The position numbers and the translations under genes are program-made. From assembly GCA_046497275.1 (NCBI GenBank), contig JAWOFX010000054.1, forward strand, positions 108,095 through 140,094: a stretch of 32,000 bases of DNA, read 5' to 3'. Under the pieces are notes generated by a model that worked only from the letters and a program-made list of their open reading frames with translations, was not told where the DNA came from and did no database searches. The DNA comes from Promethearchaeia archaeon (GTDB lineage: Archaea > Asgardarchaeota > Lokiarchaeia > Sigyniarchaeales > SOKP01). Positions 11,504-19,117 of this stretch are shown piece after piece (the first letter of the stretch is position 1; each line of letters begins with the position of its first letter).

Positions 11504-12682
11504 TTGTTAAATAATCACTCATTATTGAATAAAATTGTTTGTACTGAATGTGGTTCAGAATATAATATTACCGATTTGCATAATTTATGCACATCTTGTG
11601 GAAAAGTTCTATTCCCTCAATATGATTTAGAAAAGGCAAAAGAATTTCTTTCTAAAGATCAGATCCAGCAAAAAAAAGTCTATAACATCTGGCGTTTGAA
11701 TGAAATAATGCCTGTTAACAACTCTAAATATAGGATATCTCTTGGAGAAGGTTGGACTCCAATCATAAAAATAAATAATTATGGAAAAAGTATCGGCTTA
11801 AACAATTTATATATTAAAGACGAGGGTCAGAATCCAACTGGAACCTTTAAGAGTCGTGGTCTCTGTGCAGCAGTTTCCAAAGGATTAGAATTAGGTGTAA
11901 AAGATTTTGTAATGCCCAGTGCAGGAAATGCAGGAGCAGCTTTATCCGCATATACGGCTCATGCTGGAGTTAACGCCCATATTTTTGCTCCCAAAGATGC
12001 TCCGGAATTTATTCTAAAAGAAATAGAAGTTATGGGAGGAGATCTTGTATTAGTTGATGGGTTAATAGACTATGCTGGAGAGAAAGCGAAGATTGCTCAA
12101 CAAGAAAATGGTTGGTTTTCTGTTTCCACTCTAAAAGAGCCTTATCGGGTAGAGGGAAAAAAGACGATGGGATTAGAATTAGCGGAACAATTCGATTGGA
12201 CTTTACCTGATGTCATAATTTATCCCACTGGAGGCGGTACTGGAATCGTTGGAATGTGGAAGGTATTTTCTGAATTAGAAAAACTTGGATTAATAGGGAG
12301 TGAAAGACCTCGTATGGTTTCTGTACAACCCACAGGATGTCAACCTATCGTACGTGCATTCAAAGAGGGTAAAAAATATGCGACCAAATGGGAGGATGCA
12401 CATTCATTTGCTGGAGGGATAAGAGTACCAAGTGCAATAGGTGATTATTTAATATTGGAAGCCCTTAAGCAGTCCAATGGTACTGCTATTGCTGTACCTG
12501 ATTCAGATATCAAAATAGCTATGTATGATTTAGCGAGAATTGAAGGTATTATGCTTTGTCCTGAAGCAGCAGCAACCGTGGATGCAGCAAAAAAATTAGT
12601 AGAAAGAGGATTTTTAGACAGTGATGAGAATGTTGTATTATTTGGAACAGGTTCTGGTTTAATCACTCCGAATGATTGGTAA
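11504..12682 (+). CDS. thrC: Threonine synthase-like PLP enzyme (fold type II)
   Basis: Zn-ribbon CTEC/CTSC, SLGEGWTP, PLP lysine in NPTGTFKSRG, SAGNAG, PTGGGTG, PEAAA; TTG start with SD GAGGA. Confidence 0.82.
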   Translation: MLNNHSLLNKIVCTECGSEYNITDLHNLCTSCGKVLFPQYDLEKAKEFLSKDQIQQKKVYNIWRLNEIMPVNNSKYRISLGEGWTPIIKINNYGKSIGLNNLYIKDEGQNPTGTFKSRGLCAAVSKGLELGVKDFVMPSAGNAGAALSAYTAHAGVNAHIFAPKDAPEFILKEIEVMGGDLVLVDGLIDYAGEKAKIAQQENGWFSVSTLKEPYRVEGKKTMGLELAEQFDWTLPDVIIYPTGGGTGIVGMWKVFSELEKLGLIGSERPRMVSVQPTGCQPIVRAFKEGKKYATKWEDAHSFAGGIRVPSAIGDYLILEALKQSNGTAIAVPDSDIKIAMYDLARIEGIMLCPEAAATVDAAKKLVERGFLDSDENVVLFGTGSGLITPNDW

Positions 12683-12755
12683 AATTCGTTAAATTTCTTA
12701 TATACAAAAATTGAATATAGATAAAAAATTTAAAAATAAAAGATATTGAATTTAA

Positions 12756-14243
12756 CTAGGGATCATTACGAAGAGGATGTCGCGCATTCTCTTTATTTTC
12801 TAATGCTTCATTTACGTCGGGATTTCCTTCTAAAGCTTTCCTAATAGCATTTCTAGTCGCTTTATAATTATTGATGAAAACTCTTTTCCTTCTACTCGCA
12901 GTGGGATGGACGAATACATTTATAATTATAACCAATTCCTCTGTAAGTTCAGAGGGGATGATTCCATCTTCCACACATTGCATAATTGCCTTTCCTATCG
13001 CTGCTTGTGCTGGACCATAGACTAAACTTGAATGGCGAAGTGATGAAACTTTTACCGTTGGAATCATAATGGATGCAGGTTTAACTTGCATGTTAGGCTC
13101 TAATATCACTTGAAGACCTTCTACATCTTTTTTTGAGTGGGATAAAGCTAGAGCATAAGCCTCTCCTACTGGACCATCTTTTCTTCCTATAATTAGATCA
13201 ACATGGGCTAATTCAGCTCCTTCTCCAACAAGTGATTCTCCTACTTTTAAATTGAAATTTTCAATCTTTTTTGGAGTAATTCCTATTGAATAGAATTTAC
13301 TTGAAATTTCTTTTTCTTTGAATTCAAATTTCAGTTCTTTTTTCTCGATATAACCTATCTTTTCCAATTCTACCCGCAGTTCATCCCTTATTTCATAAGA
13401 TAATGTGTCACCTAATATTACTGGTTTTCTTGTAACTCCTACAGGAATTCCCATCATATTTAAACACTCTTTAGCACCTAGGGCTCCACTGTTAATCAAT
13501 AGTCTGGCTAATTTTTGGATCTTTTTTTGATGAGTTTGAGCTTCCTTTAACTCATTTTTTTTAACATGATTATATATCTTAAGCCATTCTTTTGGAAGAA
13601 CATTCGCCGACCCTAAAATCGCGCCAGCCGCACCTCCTGCTAATGCTCCTAGAAAATTTTCATCCCATCCTATCAACACAGATATTTTATCACTTAGCTT
13701 CTCTAATAAAGCAGAAAAATATTTATAATCTCCACTAGAATCTTTGATTCCTACGAAATTTTCAATTTCTGCAAGATCTTCTACAACTGTCCAAGGTAAT
13801 TCTATCCCAGTACAAACTGGAATGTTATAAATAACAATAGGAATATCTGTATTATCAGATATTTCATAATAATGATCATACAACCCTTTTGCTTTAGGCT
13901 TTAAATAGAAAGGTGTGACAATTAAAACCGCATCTGCTCCTATATCTGTTGCCTTATTCGTAGCTTCTATTGTGAGTTTAGTACCAGAATCCCCTGTTCC
14001 GGCAATCACCGGTACTCTCCCATTTGCCTCATCAACAACAATTTCAATAACTTTCAATCTTTCTTCCCGTGTCATATTGACAAATTCTCCTGTGGTACCA
14101 GATGGTACAAGACCTGTGACACCTTGATCGATGAGATAGTTTACTAAATTTCTTAAATTTTCTTCATTAATCGATTCATCCTTATTAAAAGGAGTTACCA
14201 TTGCTGGCATAACTCCCGTTGGTCTAAAATCAAATTTTCCCAT
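12756..14243 (-). CDS. fae: Fusion: DapA/NAL-family class I aldolase (aa 1-~298) plus formaldehyde-activating enzyme Fae (aa ~331-495)
   Basis: DapA part: GTTGE (T50,T51), YNIP (Y139), Schiff-base KDSSG (K167), GWD. Fae part: GESLVGEGAELAHVDLIIG, KPAS, YGPAQAAIGKA, VFVH, NYKAT, terminal HP. One continuous 495-codon frame. Confidence 0.9.
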   Translation of the reverse strand: MGKFDFRPTGVMPAMVTPFNKDESINEENLRNLVNYLIDQGVTGLVPSGTTGEFVNMTREERLKVIEIVVDEANGRVPVIAGTGDSGTKLTIEATNKATDIGADAVLIVTPFYLKPKAKGLYDHYYEISDNTDIPIVIYNIPVCTGIELPWTVVEDLAEIENFVGIKDSSGDYKYFSALLEKLSDKISVLIGWDENFLGALAGGAAGAILGSANVLPKEWLKIYNHVKKNELKEAQTHQKKIQKLARLLINSGALGAKECLNMMGIPVGVTRKPVILGDTLSYEIRDELRVELEKIGYIEKKELKFEFKEKEISSKFYSIGITPKKIENFNLKVGESLVGEGAELAHVDLIIGRKDGPVGEAYALALSHSKKDVEGLQVILEPNMQVKPASIMIPTVKVSSLRHSSLVYGPAQAAIGKAIMQCVEDGIIPSELTEELVIIINVFVHPTASRRKRVFINNYKATRNAIRKALEGNPDVNEALENKENARHPLRNDP

Positions 14244-14262
14244 TTTTTTACTTCTCTCCTTT

Positions 14263-15543
14263 TTATTTATGTAATTTTCTAGCTGCGATAAATGCTAATC
14301 CATTTTTTGTGAGTGCTTTAGCGGTAGAATTCACTGCTCTATATCTATCTAAATGTGTTGTGCGGTGGTATTCCCATAATCCTTGATCTTTAATTTCTTC
14401 TTTAGTCATAAAATATTCCAAAATATCGCTAGGATGTTCTCGAGATCTTTCAACCTCAATGTCACCACCCTCATGTTTCGCGCTTATATTTTTTACATTT
14501 TTTGCTAAATCAATTAATTCCTCTCTTCTATCATAAGGTTGTCTAACTATTGATTTCCACGTTTCTACAATATGATGTTCTAATCTAATAACATCTTCGA
14601 ATCCAAATTTTTTTCGAATGTAAGCTGATAGTTCAATAGTTTCGTTGTTTACTGAATTAGAAAGATTAAAACCTATTAATGGACTGGTTCCATCTTCCCG
14701 AGCAAACAACTTCGCGGTCATAAGAGTCCATAAGCATGAATAAGGATTATCATTTCCCATATAGACAGAAATTTTAAATTCATTATTGATTCCTAACTTA
14801 TAAAGCATATAACCCAATAAAACAGTCCCTGGATTAACGTTGAGAACTTGTTTAATTCCATAATTAGTATAATAATATAAATACTCGTCTATCCAATTTA
14901 AGGCAAATTCATTTGGTTCTCCTACACCTCCAAAATATCCTGTAATTGTTTCTGGACCACCTAAATGTACATTAACAGGCAGACCATCTGACCCCAGAGC
15001 AGTCCCCTTAGTATCTAAAGTTTCAACCCATGATGCTCCAATAACTTGCATTGCGGCTGACATTGCTAATAAATCCCCATCTTTTTCTTGCTCTTTCATT
15101 TTCCTTACTCGAATAATTCTTGCAGGCATCAAATTCTGATTGTCTATCGCTGCTTTTGCTATAGCAATCAAAAATGGAAAGTATTGACAAGCTGAGAGTT
15201 CTAAGGTGACAGCATAATCTTCATTAAAGGAAATTTCAGAATATTTATCTCCTAAAATTTTTTTGCGATATTCTGAAATACTGATAAAAGCATTTGAATC
15301 TCTTTTTTCAATTAACCAATCCAGATCCTCAATATAATCGGCATTAACTTTCTCAAGTTTATGATATATTTTCTCTAATTTCATAGCTTCTTGAGCTTTC
15401 TTATTAATCTCTTCAATTCCACCATATTTTTCAATTATTTCGAACAATCTATTGATTAATGGATTATTCTCATCTAATAGAAAATCATTGATATCTTGAA
15501 GAGATTCTTTTGATAATTTTAATTTATTACGTAGATTTTCCAT
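14263..15543 (-). CDS. Enzyme-like protein of unknown function (426 aa), co-transcribed with the DapA-Fae fusion
   Basis: Long clean ORF with Gly/His/Glu-rich motif-like segments (ETLDTKG, HLGGPETITGYFGG, EHH, KHEGG); 19-nt gap containing SD AGGAGA before dapA-fae. Confidence 0.85.
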   Translation of the reverse strand: MENLRNKLKLSKESLQDINDFLLDENNPLINRLFEIIEKYGGIEEINKKAQEAMKLEKIYHKLEKVNADYIEDLDWLIEKRDSNAFISISEYRKKILGDKYSEISFNEDYAVTLELSACQYFPFLIAIAKAAIDNQNLMPARIIRVRKMKEQEKDGDLLAMSAAMQVIGASWVETLDTKGTALGSDGLPVNVHLGGPETITGYFGGVGEPNEFALNWIDEYLYYYTNYGIKQVLNVNPGTVLLGYMLYKLGINNEFKISVYMGNDNPYSCLWTLMTAKLFAREDGTSPLIGFNLSNSVNNETIELSAYIRKKFGFEDVIRLEHHIVETWKSIVRQPYDRREELIDLAKNVKNISAKHEGGDIEVERSREHPSDILEYFMTKEEIKDQGLWEYHRTTHLDRYRAVNSTAKALTKNGLAFIAARKLHK

Positions 15544-15586
15544 TTCACATCATTTTTTTATTATTTATCTGAGTAATAAGTTCGAT

Positions 15587-15603
15587 TTCCCAAGAAATTC
15601 CCA
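15587..15603 (-). promoter_or_regulatory. Direct repeat TGGGAA-N5-TGGGAA upstream of the 426-aa/dapA-fae operon
   Basis: TTCCCA at 15587-15592 and 15598-15603 on +; same spacing and gene-relative orientation as the copy upstream of tfb. Confidence 0.35.
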
Positions 15604-15771
15604 CATATGGTAATTCCTTTCAATTAAATCTTTTACTTGTTATATTAGAATGAATCTATTTTAAATTTAATGTGTTAAAAATAATTGTATTGGTAATATT
15701 CTCAAAATTTCTGACAAGATCATAGCCAAAAAAATATGAAAAAAATTTCTTAAATGGGTGATGGATTAATT

Positions 15772-17346
15772 CTATAAAGAGTTTATTCTTTTAGTGGTTT
15801 CCCATCTCATAGGATAGTCTAAATATTGCTCTAACTGACTTAAGATTCTGATGGTGTTAATTATATATCCATAAAATAATTTATAAGCAATTATATAAAA
15901 AATTATTTTTAGCTTTTCTTCCTCATCAACACATATCGCATAGGCATTTATCAAGGTATCTAATATCCATATAAAAAAGAACCAAAAAATGTAAATTTCT
16001 ATATACATTAAAAATCCTGAAATGGGATTTAATACAAATAAAAAGAGCCACAGGACAGTGATAAAATTTAACCAAGAAAATATTAATCCATTTAAAAATA
16101 TCCAAGGGATCATAAATAATCCTGTAATTCCATATTTTGGATTAAAAAGCATATCTTTATGCTTAATTATTACTTGTAGCAACCCTCTATACCAGCGATA
16201 TCTTTGCTTAGCTAAGTCTATAAGAAAAGCTGGAGCTTCAGTATACCCTATTGCTTTAGGTTCATATTTTATTTTATATCCAGCTTTTAATATTTTTAAA
16301 GTGAGATCTGCATCTTCTGCAAAAGTATCTCCACTATAAAAACCAACTTGGTTAAGTATAGATTTCCTAAAAGCTCCCAAAGGACCTGGAACTACACTTA
16401 CTTTATTAAAATATGCTTCGGTTCTTCTTTGAATATTCAAATCTGATATATATTCTAAAGCTTGTAATTTTGTTAAAAATTTATCTCGGTTTCCTACTTT
16501 TACATTACCAGCTACAGCACCAACTTTATTATCATTGAAATTTTTAATTAAAGGAATTATTGCGTCTTTATTCAAAATTGTATCAGCATCAATGCAAACT
16601 AAGATATTTCCCTTAGCCTTTTCTATTCCTTTATTCAAGGCACTCCACTTTCCACCATTTTTTTTCTTTGAAATTACCTTAAGAACATTACTTTTTTTCA
16701 TATTTTTAGCAATCTTTAAAGTTTCATCTTTAGAACCATCATCTACAAGAATAATCTCCTTCTGATTATAATTTAATTTAAATAGCGAATTTATAGTTTT
16801 TTCAATTACTTTGCCTTCATTATAGGCTGGGATAATTATTGATACTAAAGGTAACTCTTCTGGTTTTTTATTGGTTGAGTGAAATAATATAGAAAATGGG
16901 ATGTTAACTATTATTCTTATACCTAGAAATATTGCTGAAATGATAAATATTATATTAGATAATTTAAAGAATATTTCTCGAAAAAATATAGATAGTAAAA
17001 ATTGACTGAATCCTAAAGTGATTATTACCATTAATATAAATTTAAAAGAAGAAATTGATCCTTTTTTAACGGGTGAGGAAAACCTTTTTCTAACTTTTCC
17101 ATACCAAAATACTATAATAAAAATAGCTAAAAACCCAATTATAGCAGAGATATAAGTAATCCAATATAATATTGGATAAATATATGGATAGCTAATTATG
17201 TAAAAAAAGATATCTCCTATAAATGAAATAAATAGTGATAAATAATATCCTATAACCCATAAGTGGTCCTTATAGATAAAGGAGAATAATAAGAGGGTCG
17301 AAATAATTATGATAATTATAATAATAAATTTTTTTTTTAATGTCAT
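15772..17346 (-). CDS. Membrane-embedded processive glycosyltransferase family 2 (PgaC/IcaA/HasA/cellulose-synthase-like)
   Basis: IIIPAYNE, VDDGSKD, DADT (DxD), GPLGAFR, AEDADL, QRYRW (QxxRW); multiple TM helices on both sides of the catalytic domain. Confidence 0.92.
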   Translation of the reverse strand: MTLKKKFIIIIIIIISTLLLFSFIYKDHLWVIGYYLSLFISFIGDIFFYIISYPYIYPILYWITYISAIIGFLAIFIIVFWYGKVRKRFSSPVKKGSISSFKFILMVIITLGFSQFLLSIFFREIFFKLSNIIFIISAIFLGIRIIVNIPFSILFHSTNKKPEELPLVSIIIPAYNEGKVIEKTINSLFKLNYNQKEIILVDDGSKDETLKIAKNMKKSNVLKVISKKKNGGKWSALNKGIEKAKGNILVCIDADTILNKDAIIPLIKNFNDNKVGAVAGNVKVGNRDKFLTKLQALEYISDLNIQRRTEAYFNKVSVVPGPLGAFRKSILNQVGFYSGDTFAEDADLTLKILKAGYKIKYEPKAIGYTEAPAFLIDLAKQRYRWYRGLLQVIIKHKDMLFNPKYGITGLFMIPWIFLNGLIFSWLNFITVLWLFLFVLNPISGFLMYIEIYIFWFFFIWILDTLINAYAICVDEEEKLKIIFYIIAYKLFYGYIINTIRILSQLEQYLDYPMRWETTKRINSL

Positions 17347-17499
17347 TTCTTTTTATCTTATCAATATTTATTTTATTCAGATTAACTCTGCGTGAAATCT
17401 CTTTTAATGGATTCGAAAAAAGAATATTATTTTCTCGTTAGTCTACTATTATCGTTGAATTCAAGTAATTAGACAAATAAAGAGTACTTATAAAACGTT

Positions 17500-17519
17500 T
17501 AGGGATAAAATTTTCCCTA
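17500..17519. promoter_or_regulatory. Imperfect palindrome TAGGGA-N8-TCCCTA between divergent GT2 and ugd genes
   Basis: GC-containing inverted repeat in an otherwise very AT-rich divergent intergenic region; function untested. Confidence 0.25.
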
Positions 17520-17764
17520 TTTATAATTTTATAAGATTAAGTCTTTCATATTATTTATTAATAAAGCCCAATTTCTACTATTTTATCAGAATGATTATGT
17601 TTTATTACTTATTTCTCGGATAATTGAAATTATTTTTGAAAAAATTATCAGTATTGAACATAGGAATAATGAACAACTTTATTAAATTTAACGAATTGGA
17701 AAAATTTTAAGTTTTGTTGATACTATTTTATACACTTAATACAAATAAAAATGAAAAATTTAAT

Positions 17765-19117
17765 ATGTATAAATATAGTGTTTCAATACTGGGAACTGGT
17801 TTTATAGGTCTCTGCTCTGCTGCTTGTTTTGCTAATAAAGATATCAAAGTTTTAGCCTCAACACATAATCAAAAGAAAGCAGAATTAATAAATAAAGGAA
17901 AGGCTCCTTTTTTTGAAAGTGGATTAGATGAAATGTTAGAGGAAATCAATAAGAACGATCCAAGTTTGTTGACATGTGTCTTAGATCAAGAAAAGGCTGT
18001 TCTTGAAACAGATATCTCTATGATAACTCAAGGAACTCCTATGAGAGAAGATAAGAGTATCAGATTAGAGTTCATTGAGAGTACAGCAAAAGAAATTGGT
18101 CAAGCATTAAAATCAACAGATAAATATCATTTAATCGTTGTTAGATCGACTGTTGTTCCGGGAACAACAAGGAATCTCGTAGGAAAGATAATTTCAGATA
18201 TCTCTGGAAAGGAACCAGGAAAAGATTTTGGTTTATGTATGCAACCAGAGTTTCTTGCTGAAGGTCGGTCAATAGAGGATACCCTTTATCCAGATAGAAT
18301 TGTTATAGGAGAATTTGATAAAAAGAGTGGTGATATTTTACAGGAATTTTATGAATATTTTTATGGTGATCATCTTGATAACTGTCCTATTCTTAGAATG
18401 AATCTTGAGAGTGCTGAATTAGTTAAATACGGAAATAATTGCTTACTTTCAAGCAAAATAAGCTATGCTAATGAATTTGCTAATTTTGCTGAACTCGTAC
18501 CAAATGTCGATGTTTCTGAAGTTATGAAAGGAGTTGGTTTAGACTATCGTATTAATCCGAGATTTTTGCGAGCTGGGGTAGGGTTTGGAGGATCATGCTT
18601 TCATAAAGATGTTAATGCAATTAAAGCATGGGCAAAATCCCGAGGGTATGAATCGAGACTATTAAACGCGGTTTTAGATATTAATGATGATCAAGCAATC
18701 CATATAATAGATATAGCTGAAGAATTAATAGGAGATTTGAAAGGAAAAAGAATAACCTTATTAGGATTAGCGTTCAAACCTGGCACCGATGATATGAGAA
18801 ATGCTCCTAGTATTCGCGTAGTAAATGAATTAAGAAAAAGAGGATATACTGACATAATAGGTTATGATCCTATAGCCAAAGAAACTGCGAGTAAAGTTTT
18901 TGGAGATTCAATAGAATATGCTGATTCAATTGAAGAAGCATTAAAGAACTCTGAATTGGCACTTTTAATTACAGAATGGGATGAATTTAAAAAACTTACA
19001 ACTGCTGATTTTAAAAAGTATATGAAACAGCCTAATCTCGTTGACGGGCGTATAATATATCCTTTTGAAGAATTTAAAAAGGAGCTTAATTTTAGATCCA
19101 TAGGACGTACTCAATAG
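17765..19117 (+). CDS. ugd: UDP-glucose/GDP-mannose 6-dehydrogenase family protein (450 aa from ATG 17765)
   Basis: GTGFIG Rossmann motif, QGTP, VRSTVVPGT, QPEFLAEG, AELVKY, catalytic GFGGSCFHKD, GLAFKPGTDDMR, DGR. Confidence 0.92.
   Translation: MYKYSVSILGTGFIGLCSAACFANKDIKVLASTHNQKKAELINKGKAPFFESGLDEMLEEINKNDPSLLTCVLDQEKAVLETDISMITQGTPMREDKSIRLEFIESTAKEIGQALKSTDKYHLIVVRSTVVPGTTRNLVGKIISDISGKEPGKDFGLCMQPEFLAEGRSIEDTLYPDRIVIGEFDKKSGDILQEFYEYFYGDHLDNCPILRMNLESAELVKYGNNCLLSSKISYANEFANFAELVPNVDVSEVMKGVGLDYRINPRFLRAGVGFGGSCFHKDVNAIKAWAKSRGYESRLLNAVLDINDDQAIHIIDIAEELIGDLKGKRITLLGLAFKPGTDDMRNAPSIRVVNELRKRGYTDIIGYDPIAKETASKVFGDSIEYADSIEEALKNSELALLITEWDEFKKLTTADFKKYMKQPNLVDGRIIYPFEEFKKELNFRSIGRTQ

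Follow-up and report, generated by a model that had tools for sequence, protein, structure and literature searches.

An unnamed protein family with a predicted helical cap and TIM barrel, encoded beside pterin-coupled aldolases in Asgard archaea and other prokaryotes

Enzymes of the DapA type join pyruvate to an aldehyde or cleave the compound so formed, and the formaldehyde-activating enzyme Fae joins formaldehyde to tetrahydromethanopterin (H4MPT). In the non-phosphorylative Entner-Doudoroff and Dahms-type routes, a dehydratase works with a DapA-family aldolase, followed in archaea by an aldehyde:ferredoxin oxidoreductase (AOR). PanB uses methylene-tetrahydrofolate as the donor of a methylene group to a 2-oxo acid. 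4-Hydroxy-2-oxobutanoate (HOB) is both the aldol of pyruvate with formaldehyde and the keto acid of homoserine. The present study concerns a gene designated c0, encoding an orphan protein of 426 amino acids (aa), and its downstream partner DapA-Fae. Both are located in a stretch of 32,000 nucleotides (nt) from a Promethearchaeia archaeon (assembly GCA_046497275.1, contig JAWOFX010000054.1, positions 108,095 to 140,094 of the forward strand), which is referred to below as the window and to which all positions refer. The pair is laid out as follows:

14263..15543, minus strand: c0 gene, orphan protein of 426 aa (open reading frame and translation, ATG start, AlphaFold pLDDT 88)
14244..14262, minus strand: spacer of 19 nt with AGGAGA before the DapA-Fae start codon (read from the sequence)
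12756..14243, minus strand: DapA-Fae, 495 aa, downstream partner; fusion of a DapA-family (class I pyruvate-type) aldolase and a formaldehyde-activating enzyme (PF00701, PF08714)

As the original prediction had it, DapA-Fae lies downstream of c0 on the same strand, across a 19-nt gap that contains AGGAGA; its ATG is at 14243. The protein matches PF00701 over aa 8-294 (2.9e-77) and PF08714 over aa 334-491 (1.2e-53), and its score with the NCBIfam model TIGR03126 (184.6 bits) exceeds the cut-off, the Fae domain being complete. It had also been suggested that c0 makes or consumes the substrate of the aldolase and thus forms a functional unit with it. The linkage of the two genes, their matching presence and absence in the window's family, a fusion of c0 with a DapA-type domain and a PanB analogue in bacteria all speak for such a unit. 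In our interpretation, which is drawn from gene context, HOB is the metabolite common to all c0 gene contexts and c0 makes or uses it; the probability of this reading is put at about 0.5.

Gene neighbourhoods of c0

Open reading frames (ORFs) were called on 87 c0 loci, 84 of them non-redundant, drawn from the best 80 of at least 586 species and from some bacterial genomes; neighbouring genes were clustered, and the recurrent clusters were named with the use of Pfam and NCBIfam. The association with aldolase and Fae genes, which the original prediction expected such a survey to reveal, was found: DapA-Fae lies beside c0 in 50 of the 84 loci, in two arrangements. The neighbourhood types are listed below.

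Type A, 34 loci: c0 then DapA-Fae on the same strand; Loki-type genomes and some loci labelled Heimdall, Odin or Bathyarchaeia
Type B, 16 loci: DapA-Fae and c0 divergent; Bathyarchaeia
Type C, 14 loci: c0, class I/II aminotransferase, homoserine dehydrogenase and AOR, often in this order; Heimdall/Hod-type genomes, a Thermoplasmata archaeon and some Bathyarchaeia
Type D, 12 loci: ECF-type S-component then c0, with a ThrC-like-PadR fusion upstream and rubrerythrin and seryl-tRNA synthetase (SerRS) downstream; Thor
Type E, 2 loci plus further bacterial cases: PanB beside c0; bacteria

In type A the genes are within three genes of each other in all 34 loci and directly adjacent in 32, with gaps mostly of 19-22 nt. 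Types A or B are combined with type C in three loci, and the homoserine dehydrogenase of type C exceeds the equivalog cut-off of NF004912. The linkage of c0 with DapA-Fae is kept despite the change of orientation between phyla, which is good evidence of a functional tie.

A single record joins c0 directly to an aldolase domain. Protein P0292 (L114:2979-5258, 759 aa), from a 5.4-kb Logan contig of a high-GC organism, comprises a divergent DHDPS-family domain (22-273), which retains the KDSSG motif with the Schiff-base lysine, followed by a full-length c0 (342-759, 55% identity); it has no Fae domain. Since the aldolase domain precedes c0 in P0292, whereas in the window the c0 gene comes first, P0292 is not a read-through artefact. 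Its predicted domain composition ties c0 to the aldolase half of the partner and not to the half that serves the one-carbon (C1) carrier.

The bacterial loci take three forms. In the first, c0 is followed by panB in an isolated pair (four of the five genomes checked, from an order with genomes of 5-8 Mb). The second consists of panB and c0, then MFS, GntR, two PfkB kinases, AP_endonuc_2 and ROK. In the third, that of the gut-type clade, the order is panB, livKHMGF, c0, ilvD, an MBL hydrolase gene, dak1 and dak2. The PanB adjacent to c0 scores as an equivalog in both bacterial clades; it is a bacterial, non-homologous and folate-dependent analogue at the position that DapA-Fae holds in archaea. 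The genes around bacterial c0 include several of sugar-acid type (IlvD/Edd dehydratase, MBL hydrolase, kinases, AP_endonuc_2). Transporters flank c0 in three unrelated contexts, as an ECF S-component in Thor, an MFS protein (L006) and a Liv-type ABC transporter (L002).

By analogy with known DapA and Fae enzymes, the DapA-Fae fusion would interconvert HOB with pyruvate and methylene-H4MPT. It can be proposed that c0 works in sequence with an aldolase that shuttles C1 units from a 2-oxo acid to a pterin carrier or back, the pairs of aldolase and carrier being DapA-Fae with tetrahydromethanopterin in archaea and PanB with tetrahydrofolate in bacteria. In this scheme c0 would be the entry enzyme, converting an imported or salvaged small polar compound to HOB by a cofactor-light, probably metal-assisted lyase or isomerase reaction in its barrel. 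The DapA domain would then split HOB into pyruvate and formaldehyde, and the fused Fae domain would trap the formaldehyde as methylene-H4MPT. Where the aldolase is missing, HOB could be converted to homoserine by the aminotransferase, to aspartate semialdehyde by the homoserine dehydrogenase and to aspartate by AOR. The role of entry enzyme is favoured because of the transporters in three settings, the sugar-acid-type neighbours in bacteria and the patchy distribution of c0. The simplest candidate reaction is the dehydration of a C4 2,3-dihydroxy acid (erythronate or threonate) directly to HOB, although this particular guess is unlikely to be right.

Several observations were made on the Thor genomes and their c0 loci. 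Paralogues resembling DapA-Fae form a tandem pair there, at a locus apart from c0 (e.g. G458:C27:7348-10216), and are approximately 42-47% identical to the window's protein. The fusion of a ThrC-like PLP domain with a PadR DNA-binding domain, about 500 aa long (L072:5663-7150; also L057, L063, L076 and many other Thor genomes), is divergent from the S-component gene and the c0 that follows it, and looks like a ligand-sensing regulator of this pair. Unlike the threonine synthase (ThrC) of the window, the gene of this fusion is consistently linked to c0. Both Thor (e.g. L086:1814-3133) and the unrelated bacterium G039 (L111:11350-12663) have a SerRS gene no more than about 1.5 kb from c0, which may be a coincidence.

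Protein family and predicted fold

The reading of c0 as a genuine ORF of 426 aa with an ATG start holds, and all six segments quoted for it were found in the translation: RIIRVRKMKEQ (residues 142-152), ETLDTKG (174-180), HLGGPETITGYFGG (193-206), FKISVYMGNDNP (256-267), EHHIVETWKSIVRQPY (322-337) and KHEGG (356-360). The stop codon is TAA (14263-14265). A search of 5.8 billion proteins yielded more than 8,000 homologues at the 90%-identity level (E ≤ 0.001), the best 120 of which are full-length and 74-80% identical, and c0 is single-copy in the window's genome (98.9% complete); c0 is therefore not a chance frame. The same 120 homologues are labelled as hypothetical proteins of Promethearchaeota, Loki-, Thor-, Heimdall-, Hod- and Hermodarchaeota.

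The impression recorded earlier that similar proteins occur in other anaerobes was also correct. When one genome per species was scanned, at least 586 species were found to hold a relative of c0; the best 80 of them (63-77% identity) include Asgard lineages, Bathyarchaeia, a Thermoplasmata archaeon, a Thermoflexia bacterium and a bacterium labelled Bacillota. Identity remains at 60-80% across Asgard lineages, Bathyarchaeia, Thermoplasmata and bacteria. A divergent clade at 41% identity (P0278) is represented by more than 600 contigs, apparently from gut-type metagenomes. In an exhaustive HMMER search against one representative per 50%-identity cluster, no remote relatives were detected, and the full-length representatives were few (P0123, 61%; P0125, 51%; P0126, 42%), the others being fragments. 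This indicates that the family is compact and isolated.

Comparison with Pfam and NCBIfam gave sub-threshold noise only (no Pfam match at E ≤ 0.1), no PDB sequence was matched, whether c0 alone or the family profile was used, and feature searches of the ESM Atlas returned scores of 0.84-0.85, which is the level of noise. In the literature library that was searched, no paper on the c0 family or on a DapA-Fae module was found. Judging from the alignments and the structure model described below, c0 founds an enzyme family that has no name, evolves slowly and is predicted to combine a helical cap with a TIM barrel.

One full-length representative, P0125 (L007:8001-9158, 385 aa), is encoded on a 41-kb contig whose name marks it as a category-3 viral prediction of VirSorter, among small ORFs of no known kind and genes for an RFC-like clamp loader, an ERCC4 nuclease, a Vsr endonuclease, ThiF and a radical-SAM protein; an archaeal virus may carry it as an auxiliary metabolic gene. 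Four short chimeric or frameshifted records, P0234 (pieces of AOR, PanB and c0), P0135 (c0 with a piece of BKACE), P0142 and P0180, were judged to be assembly or frameshift artefacts and were not used.

The structure of c0 was modelled by AlphaFold2 from an alignment of 26 sequences (mean pLDDT 88, pTM 0.88), and conservation was assessed in an alignment that includes the 41% clade. The following parts of the protein were delimited:

15235..15543, minus strand: N-terminal all-helical domain, aa 1-103 (DSSP, seven helices in 2-103, pLDDT >90)
14266..15225, minus strand: TIM-barrel domain, aa ~107-426 (eight strands, structure matches over 107-423)
14911..14967, minus strand: invariant Gly-rich loop, aa 193-211, HLGGP..GYFGGVG.PN (model and alignment)

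W76, L77 and F86 are invariant in the helical domain. The second domain has the (beta/alpha)8 fold of a TIM barrel: eight strand/helix units were found in 112-357, with strands at 112-117, 142-145, 171-175, 232-234, 255-258, 289-293, 320-326 and 353-357 of the model, and the top structure matches are all TIM barrels. The invariant polar residues (E115, S117, R142, R147, T178, H193, N235, K257, S259, D265, N293, R320, E322, H324, K356, H357 and E358) are located at or just past the C-terminal ends of all eight strands, as seen from the model and alignment. The active sites of TIM barrels lie at these strand ends, and the invariant barrel residues are probably catalytic. Residues 188-210 are the sole low-confidence part of the model (pLDDT <50), yet G202, G205, G206, G208, P210 and N211 are invariant, and the Gly-rich loop may be a mobile lid of the active site. 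The earlier suggestion of metal binding is compatible with three invariant histidines and several Glu/Asp residues whose positions in the modelled TIM barrel suit an active site. Since c0 has no invariant cysteine, it is unlikely to carry an Fe-S cluster such as those of U32 or ThiC.

Structure prediction and a fold search had been recommended as a check; the fold was recovered, and no known family stood out. The matches that are tied in the VIA-align comparison include a designed barrel, ThiC, BKACE/DUF849, CutC, B12-mutase barrels, U32, transaldolases and methylenetetrahydrofolate reductase (MTHFR). The best shape match in the ESM Atlas is an unnamed cluster of 316 aa (TM 0.56/0.74, 269 residues at 2.9 Å), only 36% of whose members carry PF01136. 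When the c0 profile was aligned to those of class II aldolase, DHDPS, PanB, Fae and U32, hhalign gave probabilities of at most 1.1% each, the power of this comparison being limited by the low diversity of the c0 alignment (Neff ~2).

The best Foldseek match of c0 is to class II fructose/tagatose-bisphosphate aldolases (E 1.4e-4, TM 0.34/0.46), which are likewise TIM barrels. These aldolases possess a zinc-binding His triad and mobile loops, to which the invariant H193, H324 and H357 and the Gly-rich loop of c0 bear a possible likeness; c0 differs from them by the additional helical domain of 100 aa. Class II aldolase (PF01116) was rejected as the family of c0, given no Pfam match, an hhalign probability of 0.5% against eight Asgard sequences and a VIA Z-score of ~11, the level of unrelated barrels. 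The zinc TIM barrels of the BKACE/DUF849 family, which includes 3-keto-5-aminohexanoate cleavage enzyme and cis-epoxysuccinate hydrolase, are the most recurrent among the tied matches and cover the whole barrel (107-423). The scores of 3c6c, 3chv, 3lot, 2y7d, 3no5, 5zmu and 9hnf (Z 11.2-12.2) are tied with those of unrelated barrels, that is, at background, and no sequence match of c0 to PF05853 was found.

Three further assignments were rejected. Peptidase_U32 (PF01136, UbiU-TrhP-type) gave no Pfam match and an hhalign probability of 0.1% against 11 Asgard U32 sequences, and no Cys is invariant in c0. DHDPS/DapA (PF00701) gave no Pfam match and 0.6%. PanB gave 1.1% and is a functional neighbour of c0, not a relative.

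The MTHFR barrels among the tied matches (Z ~11) bear on the possibility that c0 leaves the keto acid alone and acts on another donor to free formaldehyde or a methylene unit, or else handles the pterin. Such a role would explain the pairing of c0 with two unrelated pterin-coupled enzymes, since the half-reaction with methylene-pterin or formaldehyde is the most obvious property that DapA-Fae and PanB have in common. The MTHFR match is, however, no better than those of dozens of unrelated barrels, P0292 fuses c0 to an aldolase domain without Fae, and the context with aminotransferase, homoserine dehydrogenase and AOR contains no C1 enzyme. A C1-side role of c0 thus seems very improbable.

Distribution across genomes and weight of the evidence

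In a sample of 151 Asgard genomes, c0 was found in 76, once in each. Its occurrence is patchy even within genera (12/14 genomes of g5, 3/5 of g2), and some 100%-complete genomes are without it. This indicates that c0 is an accessory gene, not a core one. In the window's family (f1), c0 and DapA-Fae are both present in 17 genomes and both absent from 10, and the two mismatches concern genes at contig edges.

PanB was found in 115 of the 151 genomes independently of c0 and DapA-Fae, and archaeal PPS in 131 irrespective of c0. Genus g3 is without PanB and also without c0 and DapA-Fae. In the window's genome (G000) no PanB was detected at 98.9% completeness, and a KPR-like (ApbA) gene and an archaeal PPS gene are adjacent on its contig C34 (L088). 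The idea suggested by this genome, that DapA-Fae and c0 replace PanB, was rejected, as the wider Asgard sample shows no complementary pattern. In the bacteria with a c0-panB pair (G001, G014, G021, G027, G032 and G039; loci L097-L101 and L112), PanC was found in none of six genomes and archaeal PPS in none of five, which suggests that PanB of these bacteria does not serve pantothenate synthesis. The apparent absence of homoserine dehydrogenase from one such bacterium was put down to incomplete assembly, the gene being present in its relatives.

These data bear on an alternative that places c0 in the pantoate/pantothenate branch, where it would act on ketopantoate or a nearby intermediate provided by PanB, or by DapA-Fae where PanB is missing, as an unrecognised reductase, a ligase or the enzyme of a step forming beta-alanine. 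The gap left by PanC and PPS in the c0-panB bacteria would leave room for a new enzyme; equivalog-level PanB accompanies c0 in both bacterial clades, the gut-type c0 being placed between panB and an equivalog-level ilvD, and the window's genome combines the KPR-like and PPS genes with a missing PanB. Nevertheless, this alternative appears improbable. The distribution of PanB and PPS does not depend on c0, no complementarity was observed, and g3 has neither PanB nor the two genes under study. Moreover, DapA-family aldolases use pyruvate as the nucleophile, and neighbours such as homoserine dehydrogenase, AOR and the aminotransferase do not fit the pathway.

Enzymes of the aspartate family were also surveyed. 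Archaeal Asd was found in none of 17 genomes of f5, none of 14 of f12 and 7 of 32 of f7, and canonical homoserine kinase (ThrB) in none of 61 genomes of the window's family, with or without c0. In one type C genome the homoserine dehydrogenase of the c0 locus is the sole one, and no aspartate-semialdehyde dehydrogenase was found. It seems that standard aspartate-family biosynthesis is incomplete or replaced in these Asgard lineages. The complementarity of c0 with PanB, PPS, Asd, ThrB and ThrC singled out no role for it.

The same node could be used in the opposite direction, with c0 as a sink turning HOB into a further product in a C1-assimilating or homoserine-consuming branch. HOB would then be built by the aldolase from pyruvate and methylene-pterin, or by the aminotransferase from homoserine. 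The gene contexts are symmetric as to direction, a route from HOB to homoserine would be useful to the many Asgard families in which no aspartate-semialdehyde dehydrogenase was detected, and the strong conservation of c0 suggests non-trivial chemistry. On the other hand, the within-genus patchiness of c0 is more in keeping with an accessory catabolic gene than with a biosynthetic one, the transporters adjoining it in three contexts point to an imported substrate, and no candidate product or downstream enzyme recurs beside it. We consider this direction unlikely, somewhat less so than a place in the pantothenate branch.

The reading in which c0 acts at HOB, as the entry enzyme, has several observations to its disadvantage. 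Thor genomes (f7) possess both genes in 31 of 32 cases, yet the genes are unlinked there. c0 is present without DapA-Fae in 13 of 17 genomes of f5 and in 7 of 7 of f21, which are the type C genomes, and DapA-Fae without c0 in 11 of 14 genomes of f12 and in 3 of 3 of f13. PanB and IlvD beside bacterial c0 score as true enzymes of the pantoate and valine pathways, so a branched-chain or ketopantoate substrate is possible, and at the bacterial locus of G039 c0 has no informative neighbours. In VIA-align, unrelated families score about equally (Z 11-12.8) and the top rank goes to a designed TIM barrel; since no structural neighbour rises above the generic TIM-barrel background, the fold does not indicate a lyase, an isomerase or any other activity. 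Finally, the unusually strong conservation of c0 fits demanding chemistry better than a simple dehydration.

As regards the two-gene C1 module proposed originally, the match of presence and absence in f1 supports it, whereas each gene occurs alone in some Asgard families and c0 has a second set of partners (aminotransferase, homoserine dehydrogenase and AOR). The tie between c0 and DapA-Fae is strong but not obligatory, and neither gene strictly needs the other. We would suggest, rather tentatively, that the reaction of c0 is new to the enzyme catalogue and that c0 forms, with non-homologous pterin-coupled aldolases, a module present in both archaea and bacteria and linking the C4 pool at the level of homoserine and HOB to the pool of C1 carriers. 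If so, it would be a natural counterpart of the formaldehyde-pyruvate step of the engineered homoserine cycle, and a missing piece of the carbon metabolism of Asgard archaea and Bathyarchaeia.

The locus in the window and comparison with known systems

Two further elements of the locus flank the gene pair:

12721..12742, minus strand: oligo-T tract just past the DapA-Fae stop codon (read from the sequence)
15544..15616, minus strand: stretch upstream of c0, candidate 5' leader (an RNA-library contig covers 15466-15616; contigs cannot show a transcript start)

The oligo-T tract is likely to be an archaeal terminator for the c0/DapA-Fae pair. Words of the window stretch occur in ten salt-lake metatranscriptome runs, and both genes are covered at ≥99% identity by contigs of four runs from two salt-lake studies. 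The spacer is bridged by one contig of 276 nt (14090-14365), with more than 100 nt on each side. Metatranscriptome contigs cannot exclude carry-over of DNA and are supportive only. The view that the genes share one transcript is therefore compatible with the contig across the 19-nt gap, which cannot prove it. No RNA-library contig of the four runs covers 15659-16000, which includes the end of the upstream gene of a GT2 glycosyltransferase. This hole proves nothing, but it could reflect a separate start of the pair near 15617-15658 and libraries that do not consist simply of DNA.

A threonine synthase gene (NF006050, 552 bits; 11504-12682, plus strand) converges on DapA-Fae. Among 29 other genomes of the family, ThrC of this type was found in 3, and its presence does not track that of c0. 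This indicates that in Loki-type genomes the adjacency of ThrC seen in the window is probably incidental. Upstream of c0, the window contains the gene of the membrane GT2 glycosyltransferase (15772-19117). Most related Loki loci instead have a UDP-glucose dehydrogenase gene immediately next to c0 in divergent orientation, and the GT2 gene is an insertion into this conserved arrangement.

Among the unnamed protein families of sediment archaea, a group to which the Asgard relatives of eukaryotes belong, the c0 family is one of the better conserved, and it is also present in a common gut bacterium. What is new is a TIM-barrel enzyme without a detectable family, encoded ahead of an aldolase, and the unusual pterin-coupled nature of its partner. 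The partners of c0 sit where keto-acid, amino-acid and one-carbon metabolism meet, a junction that is blank in current reconstructions of these organisms, many of whose genomes are without standard enzymes such as aspartate-semialdehyde dehydrogenase and homoserine kinase. Once the reaction is identified, thousands of "hypothetical proteins" would be named, the partner gene would lose its incorrect lysine-pathway label "DapA", and a natural set of enzymes might become available for formaldehyde-pyruvate chemistry, which is now being engineered for C1 bioconversion. Direct testing is practicable, as c0 is soluble, has the size of a single domain and has homologues in bacteria.

Among described systems, the pairs of a sugar-acid dehydratase and a DapA-family 2-keto-3-deoxy-acid aldolase have the layout proposed for c0 and its partner, the gene of an enzyme forming a 2-oxo acid being directly ahead of that of a class I pyruvate-type aldolase. 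As in those routes, AOR is recurrent at c0 loci, and transporters, kinases and an IlvD/Edd dehydratase occur in the bacterial ones. Unlike in those pairs, c0 shows no sequence relation to the dehydratases, no match to IlvD/Edd, the enolase superfamily or UxuA being found in Pfam or NCBIfam; the structural scores of UxuA (3ban, Z 11.3) and methylaspartate ammonia-lyase (1kko, Z 11.5) are within the tied background, and enolase-type entries of the ESM Atlas reach a TM of ~0.40-0.41 by query. The aldehyde released would also differ, being formaldehyde, which would be caught by the fused Fae. In this respect the closest parallel is the Fae-Hps protein of methanogens, in which Fae is combined with 3-hexulose-6-phosphate synthase. 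The logic is the same as that of DapA-Fae, an aldolase being fused to Fae and formaldehyde being passed to H4MPT; the Asgard system differs in that its aldolase is a pyruvate aldolase of the DapA type and is accompanied by an additional unrelated enzyme, c0.

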